DNA from: a virus
Virus genome (UHGV): UHGV-0055581
DNA length: 40,858 bases
Strand: one strand, 5' to 3'
Below, piece by piece: positions 10,014-40,282 of the stretch; the stretch's first letter is position 1, and the number at the start of each line of letters is the position of its first letter. A program made the position numbers and the translations under genes. The notes under the pieces are model-generated. The model worked only from the letters and a program-made list of their open reading frames with translations. It was not told where the DNA came from and made no database searches.

Positions 10014-10163
10014 TATGACAAAACAACTCAGTCCTTACCAGGACAAAATTCACAAACACATACTACGTGATCGCTTCCTGTCCAGCTTCAAGCAGCCTGG
10101 TCGATTCCGGGCTGAGTTGGAAAAAGTGAAGCTGATGCAGAAGGAGAAAGGTCATGAGTAACA
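10014..10163 (+). CDS. Small hypothetical protein (49 aa) between cII and O
   Basis: Manual translation [48 protein letters not shown]; 3' end overlaps the O start. Confidence 0.35.
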
Positions 10164-11053
10164 TATCTAATCTAGCCGAAGCCAGAGAGGCCAGAAGGCT
10201 ACAACAACCGCATCAAAGCAGCGGTAAGGGGTATGCCTTGCTGCACCGTAAAATTATGGATGTGCCGTTTTACAAGGACGCAGAAGCAGCGCATCTGTGG
10301 GTTCACTTAATCCTCAAAGCAAAGCATACGCCTGAGTATGTAATGACTGACGCAGGAGAAATTCTGGTAGGCAGAGGGAAGCTACTTGGCGGTAGAAACT
10401 CTCTGGCGTTTGAAACAGGACTCAAACCAGATCGCGTTCAGTACCTGCTTAGAAAGTTCAAAAAACTCGGCATGATTGACTGGGTTTCACACGGTAAATT
10501 CTCAGTTTTCTCGGTAGAGAAATATGACGATTATCAGTCAAATTTTGTACCAGCAGATTACCAGCAAATTACCACCTCAAAGCCAGCAATACCAATGCCT
10601 GCAAGCAATACTGTACCAGCAGATTACCAGCAAATTACCACAGATAAAGAATATAATAATATTATCTCTAATACTGACGTATTAGAGAGTACCGCAGCAG
10701 ACAAAAAGTCTGACAAGAAAAAACCTTCCGTCAGCTGTCAGGATGTTGTCGATGCTTACCACGAAATCCTTCCTGAAGCGCCAAGAATCCGCGCACTGAA
10801 TGACAAGCGTAAAAACCAGATCCGAACGTTCTGGCGCAAAGCCGGAGTGATAACCCGCCAGCTTGACGGGCATGGGTTCACGATGCAGGACTGGAGAAAT
10901 TATTTGAGCTACGTAGGCGAAAATTGCCGATGGATGTTCGAAGAGCGTCCAAACCATCAACGCGGAACCGTCTGGCACAAAAAGGGATTTGATTTCCTGC
11001 TTAACGATAATACCTACCTGAAAGTTCGTGAGGGTGAACACGATGACCGATAA
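10154..11053 (+). CDS. O: Replication initiator, O / P22 gp18-like
   Basis: 299 aa; sits directly downstream of cII and upstream of a helicase; contains internal iterons and an AT-rich tract like lambda O/ori. Confidence 0.8.
10547..10690. repeat. ori: Origin of replication: two 29-bp perfect direct repeats (each with two ATTACC-type iterons) plus adjacent AT-rich tract
   Basis: GTACCAGCAGATTACCAGCAAATTACCAC at 10547..10575 and 10612..10640, followed by an AT-rich segment 10641..10690, all inside the O-like gene. Confidence 0.8.
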
Positions 11054-20048: not shown

Positions 20049-20537
20049 ATGGCAGCACCAAAGGGCAACCGATTTTGGGAGGCCCGCAGTAGTCATGGGC
20101 GAAATCCTAAATTCGAATCGCCTGAGGAGCTGTGGGCTGCTTGTTGTGAATACTTCGAGTGGGTGGAAGCTAACCCGCTATGGGAGATGAAGGCGTTCTC
20201 GTATCAGGGTGAAGTGATACAAGAACCTATCGCCAAGATGCGAGCGATGACCATTACCGGCCTCACTCTGTTCATTGATGTGACGCTTGAAACATGGCGC
20301 ACATATCGCCTGAGAGAAGATTTATCTGAAGTCGTTACGCGAGCAGAGCAGGTCATCTACGATCAGAAATTCTCTGGCGCAGCCGCTGACCTTCTCAACG
20401 CTAACATCATCGCCCGTGATTTGGGCCTCAAAGAGCAGTCGCAAGTTGAAGACGTGACACCTGATAAGGGAGATCGCGATAAGCGACGCTCTCGTATCAA
20501 GGAGCTATTCAACCGTGGAACTGGACGCGATTCTTGA
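20049..20537 (+). CDS. Terminase small subunit (P22 gp3-like)
   Basis: [56 protein letters not shown]... matches P22 gp3 by recollection; an alternative ATG lies 6 nt upstream (20043). Confidence 0.9.
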
Positions 20538-22014
20538 TAACCTGAGCGACGAAGAGCAAATCGAGTTGCTCGAGCTACTCGAAGAAGAAGAGAACTACCG
20601 GAACACACACTTGCTATATGAATTTACGCCATACAGCAAACAGCGTGAGTTCATCGACGCCGGACATGACTATCCAGAGCGATGTTTTATGGCTGGTAAC
20701 CAGCTTGGTAAGTCATTTACTGGTGCTGCTGAAGTCGCGTTTCACCTTACCGGGCGTTATCCGGGCACAAAAGGCTATCCTGCTGATGGTAAATATGGCG
20801 GGGAGTGGAAAGGTAAGCGTTTCTATGAGCCTGTTGTCTTCTGGATTGGCGGCGAGACAAACGAGACTGTAACCAAAACGACTCAACGTATCCTGTGCGG
20901 TCGTATCGAAGAGAATGATGAGCCTGGCTACGGTTCCATACCGAAAGAAGACATCATTAGCTGGAAGAAGTCTCCTTTCTTTCCGAACCTTGTTGATCAT
21001 CTTCTGGTTAAGCATCACACGGCTGATGGCGTTGAAGATGGCATTTCAATCTGCTACTTCAAACCATACTCGCAAGGCCGTGCTCGCTGGCAGGGTGACA
21101 CAATCCACGGCGTGTGGTTTGACGAAGAGCCACCATACAGCATTTATGGCGAAGGTCTTACCCGTACCAACAAATACGGGCAATTCTCAATTCTGACGTT
21201 TACCCCGCTGATGGGGATGTCTGACGTTGTTACCAAGTTCCTGAAGAATCCCAGCAAGTCGCAGAAAGTGGTCAACATGACCATCTACGACGCTGAGCAC
21301 TACACAGACGAGCAGAAAGAGCAAATCATCGCATCCTATCCCGAGCATGAGAGAGAGGCGCGTGCTCGCGGTATTCCTACGATGGGTAGTGGTCGAATCT
21401 TCCAGATACCGGAAGAGACGATTAAGTGTCAGCCGTTCGAGTGTCCTGATCACTTCTACGTAATTGGCGGGATGGATTTCGGATGGGATCACCCACAGGC
21501 GCAGGTTCAGCTTTGGTGGGATAAGGACGCAGACACAATCTACGTTTCACGCGTGTGGAAGGCGAAAGAAAAAACAGCCGTTCAGGCATGGGGAGCTGTT
21601 AAATCATGGGCGCATAAAGTGCCAACCGCATGGCCTCATGACGGAAACCAGCACGAGAAGGGCGGCGGTGAGCAGCTCAAAGGGCAGTATGCAGATGCTG
21701 GTTTTATGATGTTGCAGGAGCATGCGACATGGCCTGATGGCGGTAATGCTGTGGAGCCTGGCATCACTGAATTGCGCGACATGATGATCGACGGTCGCTT
21801 CAAAGTATTCAACACCTGTGAGCCATTCTTTGAGGAGTTCCGCCTCTATCACCGTGATGAAAACGGGAAAATCGTCAAGCTTAACGACGACGTTCTCTCA
21901 GCCGTTCGCTATGCATACATGATGCGCCGCTTCGCCAAAATGATGCGCGACATCAAAAAACCAAAAGAGAAAAAGATACCAGCCCCAATCAGGCCCATCG
22001 CACGGAGAACTTAA
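20515..22014 (+). CDS. Terminase large subunit (P22 gp2-like)
   Basis: 499 aa, the same length as P22 gp2; immediately follows TerS with overlap. Confidence 0.9.
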
Positions 22015-24193: not shown

Positions 24194-25105
24194 ATGGACC
24201 AAACCACCGACATTCAGGCTTCTGAAGAATTAACCCTGCCCGGCAATCATGCAGCGGCATCTGCTGATGGCTTAGTTGTCGATAATGCCAACGACAACGC
24301 AGGTCAGGAAGAAGGCTTTGAGATTGTCCTGAAAGACGATGAGAAACCAAAACAAGACCCGGCAACTAATGCTGAATTTGCCCGTCGCCGCATCGAACGC
24401 AAACGCCAGCGTGAGCTTGAGCAGCAGATGGAAGCGGTTAAGCGTGGAGAGTTGCCGGAGCACCTGCGGGTGAACCCTGAGTTACCAAAACAACCAGACC
24501 CTAACGATTATCTTTCCGAAGATGCACTGGCTAAGTACGACTATGACCAGAGCCGCGCACTGGCTGCCTTCCAGCAGGCAAACAGTGAATGGCAGATCAA
24601 GGCTATGGACGCACGAAGCCAGGCTGTCGCCGAGCAGGGTCGCAAAACTCAGGAGTTCACCCAGCAATCAGCGCAATACGTCGAGGCAGCCCGTAAGCAC
24701 TACGACGCAGCGGAAAAGCTCAATATCCCTGACTATCAGGAGAAAGAGGATGCATTCATGCAACTGGTGCCGCCAGCAGTCGGTGCCGACATCATGCGCC
24801 TCTTCCCGGAGAAATCCGCTGCTCTCATGTATCACCTTGGTGCTAATCCTGAAAAAACACGCCAGTTGCTGGCGATGGAAGGACAATCAGCGCTGATTGA
24901 ACTCACTCGACTGTCAGAACGTTTAACTCTCAAGCCTCGAGCAAAACCTGTTTCAGAAGCCCCGTTACCTGATGAACCCATTCAGGGACATGCTGTTGCT
25001 GCAAATATCTCTGCGATTGAAAAGCAGATGGAAGCGGCAGCAAACAAAGGGGATGTAGAGACATACCGCAAGCTCAAGGCGCAACTGAATAAAGGAATTC
25101 GATAA
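24194..25105 (+). CDS. Scaffolding protein (P22 gp8-like)
   Basis: 303 aa; ...[29 protein letters not shown]... matches P22 gp8 by recollection. Confidence 0.9.
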
Positions 25106-26400
25106 TGGCATTAAATGAAGGTCAACTGGTCACGTATGCTCTGGATGAAATCATCGAAACCGTCCAGAACCTGACGCCAATGGCGTCCAAAGTGACAAAA
25201 TACACCCCTCCGGCAGAATCCATGCAACGTTCAAGCAACACCGTGTGGATGCCTGTTGAGCAGGAAGCGCCAACTCAGACTGGCTGGGATTTAACTGGCA
25301 ACGCTACCGGTATTCTGGAACTGTCCGTGAAATGCAACATGGGCGATCCGGATAACGATTTCTTCGAGCTTCGTGCAGATGACCTGCGTGATGAGCGTTC
25401 TTACCGTCGCCGCATCCAGGCATCCGCCAAAAAACTGGCGAATAACATTGAGTCAGCAATTGCCAAGCAGGCAACTGAAATGGGCTCACTTGTTGTTCAC
25501 GATACCCGCGCAATTGGTCCATCTACTGGCCTGTCTGGCTGGGATTTTGTGTCTGATGCAGAGCGCCTGATGTTCTCCCGCGAGCTAAACCGCGACATGG
25601 GAATCAGTTACTTCCTGAACCCTGACGATTACCGCAAAGCAGGCCGCAACCTGGTAGATGGTGACATCTTCGGGCGCGTTCCTGAAGAAGCGTATCGCAA
25701 CGGTACTATTCAGCGTCAGATTGCTGGCTTTGATGAAATTCTTCGCTCACCGAAACTTCCGGCAGTTACCAAGTCAACCGCGACTGGTGTAACTGTTTCT
25801 GGTGCGCAGAAGTTTAAGCCGCAGGCATACACCCTTGATACCGATGGTAACAAAGAGAACGTCGACAACCGTGTTGCAACGGTGACCGTATCCTCCACCA
25901 CCGGGTTTAAGCGCGGCGACAAAATCAGCTTCACTGGTGTGAAATTCCTGTCTCAGATGGCGAAGAACGTGCTGACTGATGATGCTACTTTCTCAATCAC
26001 CCGTGTGATCGATGGTACTCACATCGAAATCACGCCGAAACCGATTGCACTGGATGACGCGTCACTGACAAAAGAAGAGAAGGCTTACGCTAACGTAAAC
26101 ACCTCTCTTGCTGATACCACTCCGGTAAACGTTCTGAACGTGGCAACAACCACCGCTAACGTGTTCTGGGCTGATGACTCAATCCGCCTGCTGTCTCAGC
26201 CGATCCCGGTAACCCATGAACTGTTTGCTGGCATGAAAACGTCTTCCTTCAGCATTCCTGGCATTGGTGTTAACGGCATCTTCGCAACGCAGGGTGATAT
26301 CAACACTCTGTCTGGTAAGTGCCGTATTGCTGTGTGGTATTCAGCATGTGCTGTACGACCAGAGGCAATTGGTGTTGGTCTGCCTAACCAGACCGCGTGA
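25105..26400 (+). CDS. Major coat protein (P22 gp5-like)
   Basis: 431 aa; [19 protein letters not shown]... and ...[12 protein letters not shown]...[12 protein letters not shown]... match P22 coat by recollection. Confidence 0.95.
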
Positions 26401-26407
26401 TAACCAG

Positions 26408-26430
26408 AGGGAGCTTCGGCTCCCTTTTTT
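26408..26430 (+). terminator. Rho-independent terminator after the coat gene
   Basis: AGGGAGC-TTCG-GCTCCCT hairpin followed by T6. Confidence 0.7.
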
Positions 26431-26444
26431 ATCTGGAGACAAGC

Positions 26445-26687
26445 ATGACACACATGATCTTTCGTCATGGCGACATGAAGAAATGGAAAGGCGTTGGCTA
26501 CGACTTTGAAATCGTGAAAGCCGAAGAGCTTCAGGAATATCTGGATGCTGGCTGGTTTTCACATCCTGATGACCTTTTGAAGGATGTTGCAGAGCCAGAG
26601 CCAGAGCCAGAGCCAGAAGAAAAACAGCGTAAAAAGCCTGGTCGAAAACCTAAGGCGGCAGCAGATGAACCTGACAACGAAGGGTGA
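26445..26687 (+). CDS. Small hypothetical protein with (EP)n repeat
   Basis: 80 aa; contains [10 protein letters not shown] encoded by a (GAGCCA)4 tandem repeat; overlaps the gp4 start in another frame. Confidence 0.45.
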
Positions 26688-27165
26688 TTTAGTTCTTGCG
26701 GCATTACGTAAGCTCGGTGTGGCATCAAATGCCACGTTAACCGATGTAGAACCGCAGTCTATGGAAGACGGCGTCAACGACCTTGAAATGATGATGGCTG
26801 AATGGCTTGGCGGTGATGTGTCACCAGGTATCAACGTTGGCTACATTTTCGCTGATGCAGATGTCGCTCCAGATCCGGGAGATGAGCACGGTTTATCAAA
26901 TAACGCTATCAATGCCGTCATTTTCAACCTTGCCTGCCGCATTGCACCGGATTATGCGCTGGAAGCGTCAGCAAAACTTATAACCACTGCCAGATACGGG
27001 AAAGAGCGACTCGTCAAACTGTCTGCAATGGACAGAGCAAAAGCCGCTAAATGTAAGTCCGGTTATCCAAACCGTATGCCTGTTGGTAGCGGTAACCAGT
27101 TGGCGAAGTGGAACGGTTGGAATTACTTCCACCGAAAGGAACCTTGCGATAACGGGAGCGAATAA
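26665..27165 (+). CDS. Head-completion/tail-accessory protein (P22 gp4-like)
   Basis: [28 protein letters not shown]...[15 protein letters not shown] similar to P22 gp4 by recollection; start taken at MNLTTKGD rather than the upstream ORF extension. Confidence 0.8.
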
Positions 27166-28584
27166 ATGCCTATTCAGCAACTTCCGCTTATGAAAGGTGT
27201 CGGCAAAGACTTCCGAAATGCCGACTATATCGACTATCTGCCAGTGAATATGTTGGCTACACCCAAAGAAATCCTCAACAGCAGCGGATATCTTCGCTCA
27301 TTCCCGGGCATTGCCAAACGTTCTGATGTGAACGGCGTATCGCGAGGCGTCGAGTACAACATGGCGCAGAATGCTGTTTATCGCGTGTGTGGCGGCAAGC
27401 TCTACAAAGGCGAAAGCGAAGTCGGTGATGTTGCCGGAAGTGGTCGCGTATCAATGGCGCATGGGCGGACATCACAGGCGGTAGGCGTTAATGGTCAACT
27501 GGTCGAATACCGCTATGATGGCACGGTTAAAACCGTCTCAAACTGGCCTACAGACAGCGGATTCACGCAGTATGAGTTGGGTTCTGTTCGTGACATTACG
27601 CGCTTACGCGGGCGTTATGCGTGGTCAAAAGACGGAACTGATTCATGGTTTATCACTGACCTTGAAGACGAATCGCATCCTGACCGCTACAGCGCACAAT
27701 ATCGCGCAGAGTCTCAGCCTGACGGCATCATCGGCATCGGAACATGGCGAGATTTCATCGTCTGCTTTGGTTCATCGACGATTGAATATTTCTCCCTGAC
27801 GGGTGCAACCACCGTTGGTGCTGCTTTGTATGTCGCACAGACATCTCTTATGGTGCAGAAAGGCATTGCCGGGACTTACTGCAAAACGCCATTCTCTGAT
27901 TCTTATGCGTTCATCAGCAATCCGGCAACAGGTGCTCCGTCTGTGTATATCATCGGCTCCGGTCAGGTATCACCAATCGCCAGCGCGAGCATTGAGAAAA
28001 TTCTCCGCTCCTACACTGCTGATGAACTGGCTGATGGTGTGATGGAGTCTCTGCGATTTGATGCGCATGAGCTGCTGATTATCCATCTTCCGCGCCATGT
28101 TCTCGTGTACGACGCATCTTCAAGCGCCAATGGTCCGCAATGGTGTGTACTGAAAACAGGCCTGTATGACGATGTGTACCGCGCTATCGACTTCATTTAC
28201 GAAGGCAATCAGATAACGTGCGGCGATAAGCTGGAATCCGTGACCGGGAAATTGCAGTTCGATATCAGCAGTCAGTACGACAAGCAACAGGAACATATTT
28301 TATATTCTCCTTTAATAAAGGCAGATAACGTTTTAATAAATGACCTTGAATTAGAAACATCTGGCGGCGTGTGTGATAGAATAGATAGAATATTTATATC
28401 AGCAACTACAGATGGAATTAATTACGGTCGTGAGCAAATGGTCGTATTACAAAAACCATTTGTATATGACAATCGCGTTTTATGGCGAAAAGTTGGTCGA
28501 GTTAGACGCCTCATTGGATTTAAATTCAGAGTTATTGCAAAAGGTCCTGTTACATTATCAGGCCTTTCTATTCGTGTAACATAA
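27166..28584 (+). CDS. Tail-accessory protein (P22 gp10-like)
   Basis: 472 aa, the same length as P22 gp10; conserved gene order; last ~100 codons are AT-rich. Confidence 0.8.
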   Translation: MPIQQLPLMKGVGKDFRNADYIDYLPVNMLATPKEILNSSGYLRSFPGIAKRSDVNGVSRGVEYNMAQNAVYRVCGGKLYKGESEVGDVAGSGRVSMAHGRTSQAVGVNGQLVEYRYDGTVKTVSNWPTDSGFTQYELGSVRDITRLRGRYAWSKDGTDSWFITDLEDESHPDRYSAQYRAESQPDGIIGIGTWRDFIVCFGSSTIEYFSLTGATTVGAALYVAQTSLMVQKGIAGTYCKTPFSDSYAFISNPATGAPSVYIIGSGQVSPIASASIEKILRSYTADELADGVMESLRFDAHELLIIHLPRHVLVYDASSSANGPQWCVLKTGLYDDVYRAIDFIYEGNQITCGDKLESVTGKLQFDISSQYDKQQEHILYSPLIKADNVLINDLELETSGGVCDRIDRIFISATTDGINYGREQMVVLQKPFVYDNRVLWRKVGRVRRLIGFKFRVIAKGPVTLSGLSIRVT

Positions 28585-28605: not shown

Positions 28606-29151
28606 ATGTTGAGTGAAAACGCAAAAGATATTCCTGGATATGAAGGTTTATATGCCGTAACAGAGGATGGGCGAGTATATTCTCACTCACGTGTTGTTAA
28701 GGCTGCGCATGGCAGCACGCAACTCAGAAAGGGTCGGTGGCTAAAACAACACGAGAATAATAAAGGTTATCTATATTTGCCACTTAGTGTTGATGGAGTT
28801 AAAGTAAAATGGCTTGTGCATAGGCTTGTCGCTCTTGCTTTCGTCCCCAATCCAGAAGGCAAGCCGTTCATAAATCACATAGATAACAACCGAAAAAATA
28901 ATAATGCTTCTAATTTAGAGTGGTGTACTCAAAAGGAGAATATGAAGCATTGCTCATCTCAAGGCAGGGTGAAGTTTCCGGCTTTAAAAGGAGAAAATAA
29001 TCCAATTTCAAAGCTCTCATATGAGCAAGTAATAGAAATAAAGAAATCAAAGGGAGTTAATCAAAGAGAGCTTGCTAAAAAATACTGTGTCAGTCAGACG
29101 GTGATTCACAATATCCAGTCTGGTAAATCGTGGAGGCATGTTAATGGCTGA
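28606..29151 (+). CDS. HNH homing endonuclease (NUMOD4-like N-terminus, HNH_3 core, HTH C-terminus)
   Basis: [16 protein letters not shown] (NUMOD4-like), [14 protein letters not shown]...[18 protein letters not shown] (HNH_3-like); AT-rich; inserted between two conserved tail genes; strong AAAGGAG RBS. Confidence 0.8.
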
Positions 29152-37576: not shown

Positions 37577-40282
37577 ATGACAGACATTACAGCCAATGTT
37601 GTAGTGAGCATGCCTTCGCAACTCTTCACTATGGCGCGTTCTTTTAAAGCCGTAGCTAATGGCAAAATTTATATCGGTAAAATTGACACTGACCCGGTAA
37701 ATCCTGATAACCAGATTCAGGTCTATGTTGGGAACGAAGATGGTTCTCACGTTCCTGTTGCACAGCCAATCGTCATCAATGCCGCTGGGTATCCAGTATA
37801 TAACGGACAGATTGCCAAATTCGTAACCGTGCAAGGCCATTCTATGGCTGTTTACGATGCTTATGGCACTCAGCAGTTTTATTTCCCAAATGTATTAAAA
37901 TACGATCCAGATCAGTTTGGCCCAGACTTCAAAGAGCAGTTATCTCAATCAGGAGCATACATTAATGATGATTCAAAAGGTGATGCATTAATTGGGGTAA
38001 GGCAGCCATTTACCGGGGCTGTAACTATAACTCAGCATGAAAACAATGCTCTTTTCTTAAATGTAAAACAATTCGGAGCAATTGGGGATGGGAAATATCA
38101 TCCATTATCTGAGAGGTTTTCTTCAATTTCTGAAGCAAAATCCTTATATCCTTTTGTTGACTCATTATCTCAGTCAATAGACTGGGCCGCGTGGCAAGCT
38201 GCCCTTAACACAGGAAAGGTTATTTATGGTACTGATAATGCGTATGTAATAACGGATACGTTAACACCTGTTTCTGGTGGTGGGATAATTGGTCTTGGTG
38301 TGGGCAAATGGGTCTCCGGATATACTGCAACATTTGCTCCTGATATTACCACAGGGACCACATTCCTGATGTACGGGGTAGGAAATAAAAAATATACTGT
38401 AGATTGTGTTTCTAATATGGATGTTAGTGGTGGTGTGGTTTCTAATCCATCTTCCGAAGACCCGTATACAACAACAGCACCTGCGTCATCATATGATTTA
38501 TTGGATTTTACTAACGGTGATGCTAATGGGACTACAAGAGCCACGCTTAAACCATTCTCTGCCGCAATATTGATGCCTGAGACAGGATGTGTTCGCCTTG
38601 AGAACTTTCGTGTTGTTCCATATTTCAATGGGCTGGATGGTTATAAAGACATTGCAAATACCGGTCTTGGCGATGAGTGGGATGTAGGTATTTGGTCACG
38701 TGCGTCTTTTGGCAATGAATACCGCAATTTGCAGGTGGTTGGATACTGGCGCAAGACGGCACTTTTAAAAACGAACATTCCTGTATCTGGCACGCTGGCT
38801 GCTCAGGGCGAGGATGAAAACTATTATCACTGTAGATTCCAGGGATTCAAGGGTGTTTCGATCCGCGCCAATGATGTATTCCGAATTACAGCGGTAACGT
38901 CCAGCACTATCGAAATCCCATGGTCAGCAAGCCACACCTTCGAAACGTCCGGAGTTTTAAGATCTGGAGGCAGGAATTTCACTTATTCAGGATTATCCGT
39001 ATCCGGTGATAAGTTAGTATTTACTGGAGTGTCTAACGCTTCTGAGGCAACAGTAGGTTCTACTATACGGCGAAATGACATAGATAACTTTGGTATGGCG
39101 GGAACGCAATTTTTCGATTGCTACATTACCAGCCTGTATCACCACACACATCTGCTTGCCACATCGCAATACCTGTCTCAACCATTCAGCCGACCATCAG
39201 AGTGTATGGAGGTTTCAGGGGAACCAGTTCGCGGTGTACAGGTACATGCAGGAACCATTCAGGGATGGGATGATGTTCTTATTCATCTGCATGACTGTGG
39301 AAATATGAACTTTTACAGTACATATTTCGAAAGCCAGCAAGCATATGTAACTATAAATGGTGGTAATGCTATTGGTTATGGAGCACGTATGATAGCTTCC
39401 CGGCAATCAACAAGCTCATTACCATATGCAGCAGGGAATACACGAGTGCTTAGAATGGTCGGGTGCTCTGAAGGCAATGGCGTTGACTGGGGTCCTGTAT
39501 TTAACAACTATACAGGAGGAAGATATAATTCTGGAGACGGTGTATTTAACCCCCGCGATGCATTTATAGACCATAAATCTCTTCCTGAGCAGTCAGGAGG
39601 TGAGTCAAGACTCGTATCACAAAAAGGAAATGCCAGAGTAGTATGTGGTGTTGGTAAAACTGTACTGCTTGGACCAACGTCAGGAGATTGTAATTTACAG
39701 AGTAATACCGGAAGTTTAAATATTAGAAGTGGGATAAGAGTAAGAGTCGGTCACGCTGATGGAACAGACTGGTGGTTGGCAGATGCTAATAAAATAGCTC
39801 CTGTTGATGATAATGTTAAAGCTATTGGACAGCCATCAAACAGATGCTCTGTTATCTATGCAGGAACCGGGTCAATCAATACATCAGATGAAACTCTTAA
39901 AACAAGATATGATATTCTTAATGCAGAGCGTGATGCCGCTATTGAAATAAAGTCAGTCATCTATAAATTTAAATTTAATGACTCAATTAATCACAAAGGA
40001 ATTGAGTCGTCCAGGTATCATTTTGGCGTTGGCGCTCAAACCGTAGGGGATATTCTTAGAAAGCATGGTTTAAATCTTGAGCAATATGCTTTTTGGTGTT
40101 ACGATGAATGGCCTGACGTATGGGATGAAGAGGTGATAACTGAAGAGAGCACAGATCCTGATACAGGTGAGAAAATTTATTCTCAATATAAAACAGGAGA
40201 TATGATTCTTGTAAAAAAAGCAGGAGGACGCTACGGAATTCGTTATGACGAATTGGCTATGTTTATATTAATGGCAATGTAG
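37577..40282 (+). CDS. Tailspike: P22-type head-binding N-terminal domain, divergent receptor-binding domain, C-terminal chaperone-like region
   Basis: N-terminal ~110 aa ([34 protein letters not shown]...VLKYDPDQ) match the P22 tailspike by recollection; remainder AT-rich and unrelated; C-terminus has an SDETLK motif like the cleavage-site motif of endosialidase-type chaperone domains. Confidence 0.9.

Follow-up and report, generated by a model that had tools for sequence, protein, structure and literature searches.

The window, by which we mean the whole stretch of DNA that was analysed (40,858 nt, UHGV virus genome UHGV-0055581), is a complete P22-like (Lederbergvirus-type) prophage of E. 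coli, and the 501 nt that were tested are identical to E. coli strain DLL7555. Its P22-type coat gene and gp4 flank a small gene that contains a hexanucleotide repeat. The prophage also carries a DnaB-type helicase gene; the other features needed here are as follows (evidence in brackets).

129..1202, lambda-type integrase
20515..22014, large terminase
25105..26400, + strand, P22-type major coat protein gene, gp5 (PF11651, E = 2.8e-166)
26406..26431, + strand, intrinsic-terminator-like hairpin and T run, directly 3' of the coat stop codon
26435..26438, + strand, GGAG Shine-Dalgarno sequence of the small gene, 6 nt 5' of the ATG at 26445 (direct reading)
26445..26687, + strand, small late-operon gene, 80 aa, ATG to TGA (phrog_1175, pN/pS, position)
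26445..26588, + strand, conserved N-terminal domain of the small gene, codons 1-48 (pLDDT, pN/pS, invariant residues, hhalign)
26592..26615, + strand, (GAGCCA)4 hexanucleotide microsatellite, VNTR (direct reading, TRF, polymorphic in relatives)
26616..26687, + strand, C-terminal tail of the small gene, codons 58-80 and stop (alignments; predicted disordered)
26665..27165, + strand, gp4, the P22 tail accessory factor or head-tail adaptor, 166 aa (PF11650, E = 1.3e-58, residues 2-160)
27166..28584, gp10
37577..40282, tailspike with P22 head-binding domain

P22 has an annotated stem-loop at the position equivalent to the hairpin. The small ORF and gp4 overlap by 23 nt, the small ORF ending 20 nt inside gp4. 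Directly 3' of gp10 lies a 181-aa ORF (28606..29151, + strand) with NUMOD4 and HNH_3 domains (E = 2e-11 and 2e-10, respectively), which on account of these domains is a homing-endonuclease-like gene inserted among the head-completion and tail genes; in P22, the place directly 3' of gene 10 is taken by gene 26.

The letters from 26200 to 27100 were read directly, and 26592..26615 (+ strand) is a perfect (GAGCCA)4 array without a single mismatch. TRF delimits the array as 26590..26617 (period 6, 4.7 copies, 100% matches, score 56) and places it as the top-scoring tandem repeat of the whole 40.9-kb window. A sequence-only reading of the window had reported four perfect GAGCCA units here, and both approaches agree with it. 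A search that allowed three mismatches returned nothing but this array, in its own and in shifted registers, and no match turned up in any of 100 dinucleotide-preserving shuffles; the array is thus not a chance feature. In the small ORF the repeat forms codons 50-57 (E50-P57) and encodes (Glu-Pro)4, the EPEPEPEP stretch that the same reading had placed in the 80-aa ORF at 26445..26687. Its further statement that the gp4 frame reads SQ repeats at this point, upstream of the gp4 start, is also correct; that frame is open from an ATG at 26584.

Other repeats occur elsewhere in the window. Two clusters of an 11-bp tandem repeat, TACCAGCA[A/G]AT, with 2.5-3 copies each (10548..10574 and 10614..10645, + strand), lie inside a 299-aa ORF (10154..11053) directly 5' of the DnaB-like helicase gene. 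This ORF has no Pfam match, and the repeats look like replication-origin iterons within an initiator gene. A 20-bp unit is present twice, with 80% match, at 38275..38315 (+ strand) inside the tailspike gene.

Judged by its sequence, the 80-aa ORF is a real gene. Its N-terminal domain (codons 1-49, 26 distinct DNA haplotypes) has a pN/pS of 0.069 (pS 0.151, pN 0.010), which argues for strong purifying selection; the GGAG Shine-Dalgarno sequence is kept in the 92 loci described below, and the 80-aa protein matches the conserved family phrog_1175 (annotated 'unknown function') with E = 2.9e-37. These data favour the protein-coding status that had been given to the small ORF. The C-terminal tail has a pN/pS of 0.93, a value that is uninterpretable because diversity is very low there and the tail overlaps the gp4 initiation region. 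The first 50 residues additionally match the 186-aa family phrog_3769 (E = 1.7e-8). A search of 5.8 billion proteins yielded 336 homologous clusters; members of the N-terminal domain profile come from Escherichia, Salmonella, Klebsiella, Yersinia, Citrobacter, Enterobacter and others, and EP/DP-rich linkers are found at the tract position in homologues across genera.

From position and alignment the gene is the positional homologue of P22 orf69, ε34 gene 6 and L/ST64T orf186, and every testable feature that defines this family is present in it. As in those phages, it follows the coat gene and a stem-loop and overlaps the start of gene 4, and like the orf69/orf186 family it joins a homologous N-terminal domain of ~45 aa to a homologous basic C-terminal tail. 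At the identical gene position P22 has orf69 (MKIAIYKPGG...DGWLDHPSKLLPVEADDVKPRKGRKPKAVSDADKD), and ST64T and L have orf186. Both ends align in BLASTP against Orf186, that is, the N-terminal 50 residues and the tail (KKPGRKPKA versus KKPGPKPKA). The proteins differ in the middle. P22 orf69 has a short, non-repetitive PVEADDV peptide, Orf186 of L and ST64T has the ~95-aa Pfam WDGH domain (PF25311, E = 2.2e-40) and the window gene has the (EP)n microsatellite instead; the EP tract therefore stands where P22 has a short non-repetitive peptide and L, ST64T and ε34 have a whole extra domain. No WDGH domain (~97 aa) was found by Pfam in the 80-aa protein, which is too short for it. According to the ε34 genome paper, homologues of the gene differ in length, their role is unknown and the P22 copy is non-essential in the laboratory (PMC2629481); the phage L paper lists orf186 with unknown function (PMC8022706).

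Searches for a known function returned little. The small protein has no Pfam match above the cut-off (a weak hit to PARP, E = 0.049, reflects composition only), NCBIfam and PADLOC gave nothing significant and no defence or anti-defence family, and the best hits of a PDB sequence search (E ~0.35, histone H1 and PKS13) are compositional and not significant. The name 'dihydrolipoamide acetyltransferase' that some sources use likewise reflects composition only. Literature searches on the repeat sequence, orf69 and 'WDGH domain' found nothing on function.

Competing gene models for the region were considered and rejected. The minus-strand ORFs at 26531..26728 (reading GSGSGS) and 26559..26834 (reading WLWLWL) are mechanical consequences of the repeat and overlap two plus-strand genes that are under selection. 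A 96-aa version of the small gene, starting at a GTG at 26397 in some JGI records, crosses the terminator hairpin and has no Shine-Dalgarno sequence, and P22 orf69 has nothing that corresponds to the residues it adds.

Larger rearrangements are also seen at the locus. In the 93-aa E. coli homologue P0001, a 13-residue tandem duplication ends the N-terminal domain just before the EP tract; this is a separate, larger duplication within the same gene. In E. coli genomes H109-H119 a longer gene of the orf186 type, annotated as 'WDGH domain-containing protein', replaces the 80-aa gene in otherwise near-identical prophages. The end of the coat gene and the start of gp4 are 98-99% identical on either side of the replacement, which makes this a sharp mosaic cassette exchange at the small-gene locus.

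The small protein is predicted to consist of a folded N-terminal domain, a disordered, acidic (EP)n linker and a conserved basic KKPGRKPK tail. In an AlphaFold2 model calculated with a 30-sequence alignment, residues 1-40 have a mean pLDDT of 84-91 per ten-residue block and form a β-hairpin (2-14/17-25), followed by a helix (26-34) that bears an ELQxYLDxGW motif and a short helix (41-48). G9, G36, W37, H40 and P41 are invariant in the N-terminal domain of the family. From residue 50 onward the pLDDT drops to ~50 and no secondary structure is assigned, so the model predicts disorder or an extended conformation for both the EP tract and the basic tail. The basic K/R/P/G core of the tail is conserved across the family, and the last 23 nt of the tail overlap the start of gp4. 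Foldseek found no match with E < 1 in the PDB, and in BFVD it matched only uncharacterized phage proteins.

An exhaustive phmmer search with the N-terminal domain also retrieved proteins, 196-478 aa long, that contain four to six occurrences of the strand-helix motif (..v.xxELQxYLDxGW..; E down to 5e-7), and two of these repeat proteins carry GIY-YIG/NUMOD3 or HNH signatures. Profile-profile comparison of the N-terminal domain with the repeated module (hhalign) gave a probability of 95.6% over 20 columns; the small protein itself has no Pfam NUMOD match. The tail of the distant homologue P0134 reads KRRGRPPK and is AT-hook-like. The tail in the window, KKPGRKPK, contains G-R-K-P where the AT-hook core is R-G-R-P and is thus not canonical. 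In view of the repeated module in GIY-YIG/HNH proteins and of the tail of the distant homologue, nucleic-acid binding by the small protein is a reasonable guess. The module itself, ~33 residues long (WINnG...k.v..eELQxYLDxGW..G) and present in four to six copies in P0129, P0130, P0132, P0136 and P0142, is without a Pfam model.

The tract varies widely among relatives, it does so in frame and it changes fast. We compared 92 loci: the window itself, 80 contigs from IMG/VR, where there are roughly 260 such loci, 10 loci from complete E. coli genomes and 1 isolated phage. Short-read assembly underlies some of the contigs, but a read can span arrays of up to 72 nt, and the long alleles come from complete genomes. 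The tract ranges from 1 to 19 units, in 15 length classes and 31 tract haplotypes, and all 92 tracts are multiples of 6 nt; none is frameshifted, all ORFs are intact and the flanks are colinear around the variable tract. Pure GAGCCA arrays account for 72 of the 92. The suggestion that the EP repeat is a length-variable linker is supported by this comparison, in which copy number is far from identical, and the associated claim that units can be gained or lost in frame without harm to either neighbour agrees with the 6-nt multiples and with the intact coat gene and gp4.

When 26300..26800 was searched by megablast, 217 of 5,426 complete E. coli genomes gave a match, and match lengths were taken from 60 rows spread evenly down the ranking. 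Full-length matches measured 483, 489, 495, 501, 507, 513 and 519 nt at the short end and 525, 531, 537, 561, 579, 585 and 591 nt at the long end, all in steps of six. The 44 spread-sampled complete genomes contain 14 length alleles, with a Nei's diversity of 0.90. Three sampled rows were off by 1 nt, and in the two that were fetched the cause is T6 versus T5 in the terminator T run (26425..26430), which is T6 in most relatives and T5 in 9 of the 92 loci. Seven fetched genomes have GAGCCA arrays of 19, 17, 14, 10, 8, 5 (plus one GAGCAA) and 1 units and an eighth has a single GAGCAA; in all eight the tract alone accounts for the difference in length, with unaltered flanks on both sides and intact annotations for the coat gene, the small ORF and gp4. 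Alleles in the 80 IMG/VR contigs have 2-12 units. Isolated phages span 2-8 units as judged from match lengths (Bas106, 2; HZ41 and Louie, 5; Dewey, 6; APC_JM3.2 and IME10, 8), hence different tract lengths are compatible with plaque formation. The eight units of APC_JM3.2 were verified on its sequence, and its GenBank record has a bare 'repeat_region' at this place. The Salmonella orf69 lineage serves as a natural control: its linker has no tandem repeat and the protein is almost uniformly 69 aa long.

The tempo of change is apparent from close pairs. Four pairs of loci have no differences in ~3.2 kb of flanking sequence yet are one unit apart, and one pair with a single flank difference is three units apart. 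The tract thus mutates faster than by point substitution. In one contig (L079, IMGVR_UViG_2534681675_000013) codon 49 is followed by (GAACCA)10 and then GAGCAA; the synonymous GAACCA is used throughout the array, which argues for slippage and expansion rather than independent substitution and indicates that the array expanded in a concerted manner from a single founder unit. Most variant units are non-synonymous (EQ, ET, DP, KP and EL, with ES and GP in protein clusters), so that the linker sequence appears weakly constrained, in sharp contrast to the N-terminal domain. The calculated net charge at pH 7 runs from about -4 (n = 1) to about -22 (n = 19). Taken together, the array consists of short head-to-tail units, its copy number varies between colinear flanks and it changes faster than the surrounding sequence, which are the properties of a VNTR.

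These data are best explained by a coding microsatellite (VNTR) in a length-tolerant linker of a genuine, non-essential late-operon gene that varies by slippage, a reading to which we assign a probability of about 0.85. Slipped-strand mispairing in replication would add or remove whole 6-nt units, every allele would stay in frame with the stop codon and the gp4 overlap untouched, and only the spacer length and the net charge of the small protein would change. Since the tandem tract is a pure DNA microsatellite, length changes in the window gene are expected to arise by slippage and not by rare deletion or recombination. We infer slippage as the mechanism of tract variation, and the linker seems to be largely length-tolerant and near neutral. 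Neutrality of the tract length is assumed, and the change in charge from n = 1 to n = 19 could matter functionally.

If instead the variation were itself selected, the tract would be an adaptive, tunable spacer or contingency locus, in which EP length sets the reach from the N-terminal domain to the basic tail, or the net charge, and in which diversifying selection maintains variation, for instance in host/phage conflict or in the tuning of DNA or virion interactions. The extreme polymorphism (14 alleles in 44 genomes) is what this predicts, but mutation pressure alone gives high diversity and pure long arrays at a microsatellite. The tract amino acids also diversify between two flanking protein segments that are 95-100% conserved, EP/DP linkers persist at the tract position across several genera and the charge shifts by ~18 units across the length range; against this, the P22 lineage works with a short, fixed, non-repetitive linker, the L/ST64T lineage has the whole WDGH domain at the tract position, the gene is reported to be non-essential in P22 (PMC2629481) and the protein matched no defence or anti-defence family and no PDB fold. 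We therefore regard a selected spacer as unlikely. A two-site nucleic-acid tether is conceivable, given that the N-terminal domain motif is found in homing-endonuclease-like modules and that a homologue has an AT-hook-like RRGRPPK tail. The specific proposal that (EP)n is under selection and serves, within a small two-site nucleic-acid-binding late protein, as a rapidly evolvable 'ruler' or charge dial is slightly less probable again. Were it true, a homing-endonuclease-type strand-helix-GW module would be joined to an AT-hook-like tail, and slippage would allow P22-like phages to retune, on epidemiological time scales, how the protein interacts with DNA, with the machinery of head completion or with a host factor.

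The proximity of gp4 raises the possibility that the repeat acts at the RNA level, through mRNA spacing or structure or through termination-initiation coupling. The gp4 ATG comes 50 nt after the end of the repeat, the small-ORF stop lies 20 nt inside gp4 in an overlap that is kept in P22 and ST64T, and the Shine-Dalgarno sequence of gp4 is weak (AAGG, 9 nt spacing), so translational coupling is plausible. However, with 6-nt units the frame, the stop codon and the 23-nt gp4 overlap are alike in all alleles, and coupling would not depend on copy number. A role of RNA structure was dropped since the RNA segment that runs from the repeat up to the gp4 start shows no more stable folding than shuffled sequences (z = +0.86 with 4 units, +3.0 with 19), and Rfam has no family in the whole window. 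An effect of the repeat on gp4 is accordingly a quite improbable explanation. More improbable by far is that the repeat forms part of a gp4 isoform with an N-terminal extension that starts at 26584. The open frame in the window would permit it, but the alignment to Pfam P22_Tail-4 begins at the ATG at 26665, every relative that was fetched has the 166-aa form in its PGAP annotation and no Shine-Dalgarno sequence precedes 26584. Moreover, a GAGCTA unit is read as TAG in the gp4 frame, so that one of the loci (L090) reads MLQSQS*, and EL-containing clusters are common (e.g. P0025, with 212 member sequences).

The coding microsatellite can be set beside several known systems. Simple-sequence contingency loci share with it slipped-strand mispairing at a short tandem repeat and high-frequency, reversible alleles; they differ in that the in-frame 6-nt unit brings no ON/OFF switching here, with none of 92 alleles frameshifted. 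Because the unit leaves the frame, stop codon and gp4 overlap alike, the tract is not a phase-variation switch. In composition the linker recalls TonB, whose proline-rich spacer is (Glu-Pro)n-(Lys-Pro)m; EP runs are also known from trypanosome EP procyclin and from the linkers of E2 lipoyl domains. As in TonB, a Glu-Pro run is followed by a Lys/Pro-rich basic stretch to give an extended spacer between functional segments. Unlike TonB, the small protein has neither a membrane anchor nor the TonB C-terminal domain, its N-terminus is a soluble β-hairpin/helix domain, and no TonB family was matched in Pfam or NCBIfam. The resemblance is compositional and mechanical and not a family relationship. 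Among prophage repeats, the Salmonella Typhimurium STTR6 VNTR sits on Gifsy-1 (PMC3901673) and is, like the GAGCCA tract, a prophage-borne short-unit repeat whose copy number is highly polymorphic among close strains, although the locus, gene and phage group are different. Within the P22-like phages, orf232 contains a 15-bp coding repeat in which L and ST64T differ by one unit (PMC8022706, Table 1), a further coding repeat with a copy-number difference. Our literature searches found no description of the GAGCCA locus, either as such or as a typing marker.

As a coding microsatellite the GAGCCA tract is ordinary, apart from being very polymorphic. Slippage is to be expected in a tolerant, disordered linker, so there is little biological surprise in it. 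The annotation of the region is settled: a genuine gene occupies the 80-aa ORF, the start of gp4 is at 26665, and neither the SQSQ frame nor the minus-strand ORFs represent genes. With at least 14 alleles and a diversity of ~0.9, the tract offers a highly discriminating natural marker by which P22-like prophages can be tracked in E. coli. It also calls for caution, as protein clustering at 90% identity splits this one gene into dozens of 'families'. Finally, the alleles constitute a natural deletion and expansion series, in which two conserved segments are separated by 2 to 38 linker residues, which makes the orf69-family protein easy to probe for linker-length dependence.
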